From an uncultured Pseudomonadota bacterium (GTDB taxonomy: Bacteria > Myxococcota_A > UBA796 > GCA-2862545), in contig CAIUDO010000223.1 in NCBI GenBank assembly GCA_903897935.1, forward strand, positions 1 through 16,973: 16,973 nucleotides of DNA, written 5' to 3'. The notes beneath the pieces were generated by a model. It had not been told where the DNA came from, made no database searches, and saw only the letters and a program-made list of their open reading frames with translations. Shown one piece after another: positions 3,062 to 3,262 of the stretch. Within the stretch, counting starts at the first letter, position 1. Each line of letters opens with the position of its first letter. Position numbers and translations under genes: made by a program.

Positions 3062-3134
3062 ATTGATGACGGGAATCGAACCCGCTGCCGAACCCCACTC
3101 AAGGGATTTGCTCTACCGATGAGCTACATCAGGC
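3062..3134 (-). tRNA. tRNA-like gene, possibly a degenerate or pseudo-tRNA. It has D-arm GCTC/GAGC, anticodon loop CTTGAGT (anticodon UGA-like) and T-arm GCGGG-TTCGATT-CCCGT. The top of the acceptor stem is imperfect (5 of 7 bp pair) and there is no long variable arm or encoded CCA
   Basis: Reverse complement of 3062-3134 is CCTGATGTAGCTCATCGGTAGAGCAAATCCCTTGAGTGGGGTTCGGCAGCGGGTTCGATTCCCGTCATCAATC. U8, A14, G18G19, U33 and a purine at 37 are all in place, with a canonical TTCGATT T-loop. A UGA anticodon implies Ser, which needs a long variable arm. None is present, and acceptor pairs 1-72 and 2-71 are mismatched. Confidence 0.45.
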
Positions 3135-3203
3135 GAACCACGCACCACGCTCGGACAAAACGCGGGACGCCCCAAGGCAGGGCCCAGGGTCGCCGCTCTC
3201 TCC

Positions 3204-3262
3204 GCGTGGTGCCCCGGAATCGAACCGGAGACGAAACGCCGCGCGAGGCTACCCGCGCAGCA
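3204..3262 (-). other. tRNA 3'-half-like fragment: a T-arm (TCCGG-TTCGATT-CCGGG) followed by GGCACCAC, with no recognisable D or anticodon arms
   Basis: Plus-strand ccggaatcgaaccgg is the reverse complement of a canonical T-arm. A 9-bp inverted repeat GCACCACGC (3142-3150) / GCGTGGTGC (3204-3212) bridges this fragment and the tRNA-like gene at 3062-3134. Confidence 0.3.

Follow-up and report, generated by a model that had tools for sequence, protein, structure and literature searches.

A near-complete tRNA-like fold within a conserved, structured RNA upstream of slipin genes

Why should something so close to a tRNA lie upstream of a slipin gene, with a second T arm beside it? The question is raised by a metagenomic contig (CAIUDO010000223.1; 16,973 nt, about 72% G+C), analysed at its full length and called the window below. 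On its minus strand, positions 3062-3262 hold a degenerate tRNA-like gene and a piece resembling part of another tRNA, tied together by an inverted repeat. The first-pass annotation offered two answers: a tRNA pseudogene with an att-like remnant of a past integration, or a single structured RNA derived from tRNA. I favor a version of the second. On balance, and with modest confidence, I take 3062-3262 to be the central part of one conserved, highly structured minus-strand RNA that serves as the leader of the slipin mRNA, its tRNA parts used as architecture and not as decoder. The unit is far larger than the interval first noted. Its conserved core runs at least from ~3298 to ~2822, where the ribosome binding site (RBS) of slipin lies, and its start may be as far upstream as ~3545, for a total of about 500-700 nt.

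The tRNA-like domain is easily recognized. ARAGORN calls one tRNA on the minus strand of the window, at 3133-3059, a 75-nt 'tRNA-Ser (tga)'. The D arm reads GCUC-AUCGGUA-GAGC and the T arm GCGGG-UUCGAUU-CCCGU, both canonical; U8, A14, G18G19 and the T-loop positions are retained, and C74 C75 follow the discriminator. The acceptor stem is paired by direct reading from U3-A70 through G7-C66, leaving C1.U72 and C2.A71 unpaired. The Rfam model RF00005 gives a partial match of 37.9 bits (gathering score 29) that extends over model positions 3-68 only, so the top of the acceptor stem is unmatched. The anticodon arm, AAUCC-CUUGAGUG-GGGUU, can be read as an 8-nt loop (3103-3096) on a perfect 5-bp stem or as a 6-nt loop on 6 bp; the 7-nt loop chosen by ARAGORN requires an A.G mismatch. 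The variable region is only 5 nt (CGGCA), without the long class II arm that goes with bacterial Ser identity. The domain thus bears out the earlier description of a four-armed element with the usual conserved positions and an unpaired acceptor top, which is not a normal tRNA-Ser.

Then there is the second T arm. A hairpin, Pt (CUCCGG-UUCGAUU-CCGGGG, 3212-3230, minus strand, as are all the RNA features described here), sits where the first-pass annotation had placed such a piece, 79 nt upstream of the tRNA-like domain on the same strand, and CACCACGC comes next. The window has just two copies of the 11-mer GGTTCGATTCC, 144 nt apart and each on the minus strand, against an expectation of 0.24 even with one mismatch permitted. 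The arms of the inverted repeat, 3142-3150 (GCGUGGUGC at 3150-3142) and 3204-3212 (GCACCACGC), are 9 nt long, 100% complementary and 53 nt apart. By itself this repeat is not above chance: a 900-nt scan at ~70% G+C has 25 inverted pairs of at least 9 nt. Within the window sequence alone, only the two T-loops exceed chance, and the repeat has to be judged by comparative evidence, not by single-sequence statistics.

That evidence comes from the slipins. The window protein belongs to a subfamily of about 55 proteins at 40-57% identity, followed by a gap to 36% or less, and it has no close relative outside its own species. Ten lineages with short-form slipins were compared: the window and loci L002, L003, L006, L133, L135, L137, L139, L141 and L142. 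Their slipins are 49-57% identical to that of the window, and the flanking genes differ from locus to locus. In all ten, the cloverleaf, the second T-arm hairpin and the helix formed by the inverted repeat (Px) recur upstream of slipin. The tRNA-like domain lies on the same strand as slipin, 216-372 nt upstream of the ATG, inside a gene-free gap of 0.6-1.4 kb, and slipin is the only gene with a conserved linkage to the RNA. Slipin divergence of ~50%, together with different flanks, argues against one recently spread mobile element. The RNA is absent from the locus of a long-form slipin (P0002, L132), a protein with extra copies of the N-terminal repeat. The blocks conserved among the short-form loci are, in order, a hairpin called P1, Pt (UCUCCGGUUCGAYUCCGGRG), a hairpin called P3 (AGCGGCG...CGUYCCGCG), the motif UGCGUGG, the tRNA body, two hairpins, and a 3' domain that reaches the Shine-Dalgarno (SD) sequence.

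What has been kept of the tRNA can be read from these ten copies. The homologous domains score 43.8-64.6 bits with RF00005, and the cloverleaf with the conserved tertiary positions of the elbow is present in the window and homologues alike. By pair counts the D stem is invariant, while the T stem and all five pairs of the anticodon stem covary. The loop on that last stem is CUCUUAA, CUUGAAC, CUUGAAA, AGAGA, CUUGAAC, CCUGGA, CUGACC, CUCCUGG, CUCACCC or, in the window, CUUGAGUG, with lengths of 5-8 nt, and ARAGORN labels the copies variously as Lys, Ser, Leu, Arg, Val and '???'. No anticodon is conserved among the orthologues. The acceptor is short of seven pairs in every copy, with a non-pair at 2:71 or 3:70 in 10/10. 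CC occupies positions 74-75 in eight copies, and four have a full CCA. RNase P contacts the 3' RCCA, and CC or CCA after the discriminator fits recognition by that enzyme.

It is in the same comparison that the inverted repeat earns its place. Each lineage has a stretch of 6-9 nt immediately 3' of Pt that is able to pair with another, also of 6-9 nt, that ends where UGCGUGG begins. In the register common to the homologues the arms in the window are CCACGC (3204-3209) and GCGUGG (3145-3150); the arm first noted as 3204-3212 overlaps the last pair of Pt, and 3142-3150 is the same helix extended 3 nt into the UGCGUGG motif. The corresponding arms are UCCGGA/UCCGGA in L006, UCCGGG/CCCGGA in L133, CCGACCC/GGGUCGG in L141 and ACUGUCGU/GCGCCAGU in L002. 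Cognate arms give a duplex energy of -9.4 kcal/mol, compared with -4.5 kcal/mol for non-cognate arms (permutation p = 5e-5). On a MAFFT alignment in which the window is off by one column, a displacement that works against the result, 86.9% of cells are paired, compared with 61.5% when shuffled; five of the seven pairs have changed on both sides, and none of 500 shuffles reaches the score. The covariation score of 0.556 falls to ~0.1 when the partner is slid. Px is found as well in the thermodynamic centroid of the window sequence. Judged by its covariation, then, the repeat that was suspected of pairing across the gap is a real helix.

The same alignments dispose of the idea that Pt is the remnant of a tRNA 3' half. 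The sequence following it, GGCACCAC, is not kept as sequence, only as one strand of the covarying helix, so there is no duplicated tRNA 3' end. Pt itself is kept: CCGGUUCGAYUCCGG is identical in eight lineages (L141 has UUCAAUU, and L142 is degenerate), 91% of cells are paired, and there is one G-C/C-G swap. Together, Pt and Px appear to mimic the coaxial stack of T arm and acceptor in a tRNA, in permuted order.

The loop of Px is closed by P3, a hairpin drawn by RNAalifold at 3166-3194 (GGCG-ACCC-U-GGGC-CCU-GCC..GGGG-CGUC), preceded by purine-rich GGAGAGA (3203-3197) and followed by CCGCGU (3165-3160). Its helices, at alignment columns 84-87/120-123, 100-102/117-119 and 105-107/111-113, are 87-100% paired, with four pairs changed on both sides. 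The UGCGUGG motif (3138-3144) stands 3-11 nt 5' of the tRNA-like acceptor and is identical in 7/10 lineages; L139 has CGCAGGG, L141 UGCCUGG, and L142 a degenerate form. RNAalifold pairs the motif with CCGCGU (90% of cells paired), and this predicted pairing may make a pseudoknot together with Px; since neither strand varies much, the pairing is outside the reach of a covariation test. RNAalifold also pairs the GGG before P3 with C74 C75, a matter of only 3 bp, near-invariant on both sides and with A.C in the window.

When the tRNA arms are taken together with Pt, Px, P3 and the pairing that may form a pseudoknot, as one core, 90.4% of cells are paired, against 82.2% in shuffled alignments, none of 500 of which reaches the score. 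Fifteen pairs have changed on both sides, and the covariation score is 0.301, against 0.05-0.11 with the partner slid. A covariance model of the core gives its members 125-213 bits and ordinary tRNA genes at most 70, and finds one copy in the window. Of the two outcomes that the first-pass annotation named as refuting, a covariance match to an ordinary tRNA and a lack of conservation in relatives, neither is seen.

A statement about selection comes from much closer relatives. The window was compared with eight contigs from strains ~97% identical to it; its species is present in freshwater and soil samples, among them the JGI samples of L145-L153. Over 2818-3298, one nucleotide of 481 differs, and over 3236-3298 none does. 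The regions used for comparison differ by 2.2-4.9% (slipin coding sequence 24/1086, TPR gene 72/1484, upstream region 9/271, lipoprotein gene 9/384), and even at the lowest of the flanking rates the Poisson probability of one difference or fewer in the core is ~3e-4. The sole difference is at 3133, C in the window and G in all eight relatives, which turns a G1.U72 wobble into C1.U72. On this count of substitutions, the RNA core is under purifying selection stronger than that on the neighbouring proteins, and such selection excludes a pseudogene or a scar.

The structured region extends well beyond the interval first noted, in both directions. On its 5' side stands P1 (3322-3355), a G+C-rich hairpin, GGCGCCCCCGG...CCGGGGGCGCC then GUCGUUUUGG, whose inverted pair is 12 nt long and 100% complementary. 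It is kept in eight lineages, and in L141 (~1843-1880) it is directly followed by nine U. P1 resembles an intrinsic terminator and may be the 5' boundary of the RNA or an attenuator. About 190 nt further upstream, at 3578-3552 in the window, there is a promoter-like TTGCAC...TTAC(C/G)S. In L139 the place of P1, directly upstream of the core, is taken by an integrase gene of phage type together with a genuine tRNA-Thr(CGU), which lie on the opposite strand (592-1912); this integration hotspot adjoins the element and is not within it. Between P1 and Pt lie two hairpins (3293-3273 and 3262-3237) that vary among lineages in length and sequence, the second of them forming the 5' edge of the interval 3062-3262.

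Directly 3' of the tRNA-like domain come hairpins H1 (3056-3040) and H2 (3036-3021), found with different sequences in other lineages; H1 is 96.6% paired. They are followed by the 3' domain (2856-3015), a multi-helix fold given by RNAalifold and pair counts. Its long-range helix joins 3015-3007 to 2876-2868 (GGGUGUGG/CCACACC in homologues), and a second helix joins CUGCCGGUCUG (2958-2948) to CCCACCAGGUGG (2915-2904). Here 87% of cells are paired, against 78.7% shuffled, 15 pairs have changed on both sides, and no shuffle in 500 does as well. The SD of slipin, GGAGG at 2827-2823, is separated by an N5 spacer from the ATG at 2817-2815. In L002 (~5948-5959), L003, L135 and L137, a box AAUCGAACC(A/C)CC, absent from the window, lies 45-60 nt upstream of the SD and could pair with its complement GGUUCGAUU in Pt; the L137 box fits Pt and not the T arm of the tRNA-like domain. 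Box and Pt are a possible alternative pairing akin to the off-state of yjdF, confined to this subclade and unused in the argument that follows.

I propose that the RNA is the 5' leader of slipin mRNA, co-transcribed with it in most lineages. Conservation that continues unbroken to the SD, the lack of a canonical terminator-like signal between the RNA and the slipin RBS in 8/10 lineages, and the fixed orientation all point to a leader. The RNA contains two tRNA-derived modules. One is a complete tRNA-like L-shape, in which the elbow, the D, T and anticodon stems and the lower 4-5 acceptor pairs are under selection, the anticodon loop is free to vary in length and sequence, and the top of the acceptor is always interrupted. 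What is kept is precisely what forms the L-shape and the surface by which RNase P and the CCA-end enzymes recognize a tRNA. The other is a minihelix mimic, Pt stacked on Px, closed by P3 and abutting UGCGUGG. The acceptor mismatch and the variable loop would block charging and entry into translation, leaving the fold as a recognition handle, most likely for RNase P or other enzymes that act on tRNA ends. Cleavage of the RNase P type would yield a processed, tRNA-capped slipin mRNA and release a 5' RNA. Alternatively, the fold may be a handle for the ribosome and enhance translation as a tRNA in cis, by analogy with yjdF and grafted tRNAs.

Several matters weigh against the leader proposal or limit what can be built on it. 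The ends of the transcript, its processing and its co-transcription with slipin are all read from sequence. The tRNA-like domain is 216-372 nt from the SD, with a folded domain between, a distance far beyond that in yjdF, which makes direct recruitment of the ribosome less obvious. The loop motif YUUGA recurs in four lineages, and the anticodon loop may not be entirely free. The window lineage, and it alone, has a strong terminator-like hairpin (2891-2866) with a U tract (2865-2856) between the RNA and the slipin RBS, which could make the RNA a separate transcript. This terminator and the long-range helix of the 3' domain both use GGCGCGCCUCC as their 3' strand, and only one of them can form at a time, an arrangement that, as read from the sequence, would suit an attenuator. 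The minimum free energy of a 281-nt stretch is not unusual (z = -1.08). As for the comparison itself, there are just ten independent lineages, of which L002, L003, L135 and L137 are fairly close; every homologous locus was reached through its slipin protein, so that linkage is read from slipin to RNA; the shuffle controls ignore phylogeny; and the tested structures derive in part from the same alignments.

An alternative view is that the RNA stands alone and acts in trans, possibly as part of a ribonucleoprotein, and is encoded beside slipin because the two work together, the SPFH assembly putatively binding, scaffolding or localizing it. On this view both modules, the tRNA-like one and the minihelix, would serve to bind protein or as architecture. 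I regard this as a serious rival, albeit the less likely of the two. At about 480 nt or more, with many covarying helices and perhaps a pseudoknot, the RNA is larger and more complex than most cis-regulators, selection on the core is stronger than on the adjacent coding sequences, the window lineage has its strong terminator after the RNA, and P1 looks like a terminator or boundary. There are known large RNAs tied to particular partners, and GOLLD is sometimes found with covalently linked tRNAs (PMC12286853). However, conservation of sequence is continuous to the SD, and a terminator-like signal before the slipin RBS is missing from eight of the ten lineages. Moreover, the slipin N-terminal domain has no recognizable RNA-binding fold: for residues 1-145 (window 2383-2817, minus strand) AlphaFold gives a confident model (pLDDT 90.1) in which a five-strand beta unit with the motif PG(R/K)(H/Y)xxW occurs twice, and the model has no match in the PDB at E < 0.001. 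A bolder proposal, which I consider unlikely, is that these loci define a new class of large ornate RNA, a 'slipin-associated tRNA-like RNA', that has co-opted a whole tRNA and a permuted T-arm/acceptor minihelix for its architecture and works physically with a soluble SPFH assembly, or else a new control device dependent on RNase P or the ribosome. A slipin-RNA particle would be loosely reminiscent of vault RNA with the major vault protein, which has an SPFH-like shoulder.

Could the domain be a working tRNA after all, excised, CCA-tailed and charged, used for unusual decoding or as an aminoacyl donor outside the ribosome? Decoding might be of quadruplets or frameshifts by way of the 8-nt loop, or might mistranslate UCA through a UGA anticodon on a class I body. 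The full cloverleaf with all its tertiary positions, at up to 64.6 bits in homologues, the CC or CCA kept after the discriminator in most members, the UGA anticodon with A37 in L003, L135 and L139 (expanded in the window), and the perfect tRNA-Lys CUU loop of L002 all speak for it. But the orthologous loops have 5, 6, 7 or 8 nt and anticodons CUU, UGA, CAC, CCU or none, which is incompatible with a conserved decoding role. Acceptor pairs 1:72-3:70 are where most synthetases read identity, and a mismatch falls among them in all ten copies, the top two positions being unpaired in the window. Nor is there a long variable arm for Ser identity. Spacers around ordinary tRNA genes are not like the flanks here, where Px/UGCGUGG stands 3-11 nt upstream and H1 4-5 nt downstream, both conserved and tightly folded. 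I find this explanation distinctly improbable. The remaining one is that a tRNA gene decayed beside a partial tRNA copy left as an att scar by an old integration, with complementarity arising by chance, and I give it hardly any credence. Integration at the 3' ends of tRNA genes is, to be sure, common, the 9-bp repeat taken by itself does not exceed chance in a G+C-rich region, the L139 locus has an integrase and a real tRNA-Thr nearby, and a 1.3-kb strain-specific indel lies about 0.8 kb away in the window. Against this, the two-piece arrangement with a covarying Px is present in ten lineages with differing flanks and slipins at 49-57% identity, and the near-zero divergence between strains is contrary to neutral decay. 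The window lacks an integrase, and nothing longer than a 9-mer repeats the tRNA 3' end directly. The second T arm is upstream of the tRNA-like domain, not at the far end of an island, and no conserved acceptor sequence follows it; phage and plasmid collections and viral contigs contain no match.

The distribution of the RNA is known approximately. A scan of genome contigs for TGCGTGG-N(4-16)-GATGTAGCTCA, a pattern too loose to give more than an approximate distribution and taxonomy, returned at least 119 stretches, and among the matches listed just one, L039 (the same as L006), has the T-arm hairpin. A stricter three-block pattern found, in metagenome contigs, two known loci and two chance matches within coding regions (L130, L131), and gave no match in viral contigs. 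A blastn search of plasmid and phage collections with the core likewise gave none. The named slipin homologues come from metagenome-assembled genomes (MAGs) of 'Oligoflexia', 'Deltaproteobacteria' and 'Myxococcota', and the named relatives of the window ArgG, at ~76% identity, from MAGs of Myxococcales/Polyangia and Thermoanaerobaculaceae. The hosts of the RNA are probably Myxococcota-like. One contig with both RNA and slipin, CAZRFD010000236.1 (L006/L039, ~70% G+C), is labelled 'uncultured Enterobacterales bacterium', which is probably a taxonomic mislabel.

The rest of the window can be described briefly. The slipin gene (SPFH/Band 7; 1732-2827 including the SD, minus strand; Pfam PF01145, E = 6.6e-25) encodes 361 aa, and the identical protein is present on public contigs. 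No link of slipin and its neighbours to defence systems emerges: PADLOC reports nothing beyond a weak TPR match, and NCBIfam gives a weak similarity to HflK only. A frame plot has no coding signal across ~2880-3600. A 40-aa open reading frame (ORF) upstream of P1, called in another assembly, is not kept in L002 and is not treated as a gene. Upstream and divergent from RNA and slipin is a gene for a Cys-rich lipoprotein (3632-4015). Beside it, 4036-5359 (~1.3 kb) is a strain-specific indel, replaced by ~160 nt in eight strains of ~97% identity; its ORFs, 4061-4750 and 4158-4955, have no Pfam match, and the frame indicated by third-position G+C (GC3) switches near 4440. These are probably the odd genes next door that the first-pass annotation thought fitting for an integration. 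The remaining contig holds an arginine-biosynthesis operon (argR, argG, argC, argD, argF, argB, argE) and TPR and MopE-repeat proteins, among them a large protein (14523-16817, minus strand) in which Pfam recognizes 13 repeats of MopE type, putatively metal-binding (E = 1.7e-121). Among the window proteins scanned with Pfam there is no integrase and no Ro60 (TROVE).

What would it mean for a long RNA under strong constraint, linked to an SPFH/slipin gene, always to include a near-intact tRNA and a second, permuted half-tRNA? The roles of such proteins in bacteria are poorly understood, and the RNA is a candidate link between their expression or function and the machinery that recognizes tRNA: RNase P, the ribosome, modification enzymes. 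It would also be a natural example of a tRNA gene turned structural module, in which each arm shows what selection has done with it: the elbow and stems are kept, the anticodon loop is released and the acceptor top is disabled. There is a practical side: the 'tRNA-Ser(tga)', 'tRNA-Val' and 'tRNA-Arg' that ARAGORN reports at slipin loci are to be regarded as false tRNA genes, and the RNA is a candidate for a new structured-RNA family in Rfam. A search of Rfam 15 (E <= 10) with window 2800-3700 and L002 matched tRNA only, with no match to yjdF, Y-RNA, T-box, tmRNA, GOLLD, ROOL or OLE, and a full-text literature search turned up no description of a tRNA-like RNA associated with slipin or SPFH genes. 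The RNA therefore appears to be an undescribed structured family that uses tRNA mimicry.

To my knowledge, there are few cases of tRNA mimicry in bacterial RNAs: tmRNA, YrlA, yjdF and the passengers of GOLLD. The obvious standard is the canonical class I tRNA, which has the same cloverleaf, U8, A14, G18G19, T loop UUCGAUU, 5-nt variable loop and CC(A). The closest body is like that of tRNA-Lys, and the L002 copy even has its CUCUUAA loop (Lys CUU). Unlike a canonical tRNA, the element has an unconserved anticodon loop, an acceptor mismatch in all copies, and conserved, structured flanks. Transfer-messenger RNA also joins a tRNA-like part to an mRNA part, but it splits the tRNA-like domain between its ends and contains a tag ORF. 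A tmRNA or permuted tmRNA, suggested by a T arm with GCACCA, was considered and set aside: ARAGORN reports no tmRNA, and no two lineages share the sequence that follows Pt. A T-box leader, which has a Stem I with a specifier loop and an antiterminator pairing with the NCCA of a tRNA, was likewise dropped, there being no Rfam match in window 2800-3700 or L002. In eukaryotes and organelles, the mascRNA of MALAT1 and the t-elements of plant mitochondria are tRNA-shaped processing signals that recruit RNase P or RNase Z to longer transcripts.

Among mRNA leaders the precedent is yjdF, where a tRNA(Lys)-like fold acts through its L-shape and not by decoding; translation rises 2-6.3-fold when a leader is given a tRNA in cis (PMC9142559, Trachman et al. 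2022). The yjdF mutant G19U/G20U shows a loss of expression, and the family model of yjdF has a four-way junction with a purine-rich J1/2. The box near the RBS that in four homologues is complementary to T-arm sequence recalls the off-state of yjdF. The slipin RNA is unlike yjdF in that its cloverleaf is near-complete and separated from the SD by 216-372 nt that include a second folded domain, and in having the extra T-arm/minihelix module. For that module the closest counterpart is YrlA, in which a T stem-loop is followed by a closed acceptor-like stem in permuted order, and on which RNase P (by cutting it) and the tRNA enzymes TruB and DusA all act (PMC4201824, Chen et al. 2014). Here, too, the order is permuted, Pt being directly followed by Px capped by P3. 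The slipin RNA differs from YrlA in having no Rfam match to Y-RNA and no TROVE gene among the window proteins scanned (the Ro-binding motif was not sought), in the complete second cloverleaf that follows, and in being linked to slipin. GOLLD and ROOL, finally, are bacterial RNAs of large size and many helices that occur with tRNAs, and in GOLLD a linker sometimes has tRNAs covalently joined to it (PMC12286853, Kretsch et al. 2025). The slipin RNA has no phage context like that of GOLLD and ROOL (0 matches in viral contigs and phage genomes). In contrast to GOLLD and ROOL it is chromosomal, and its tRNA-like fold is an invariant part of the core and not an optional passenger.

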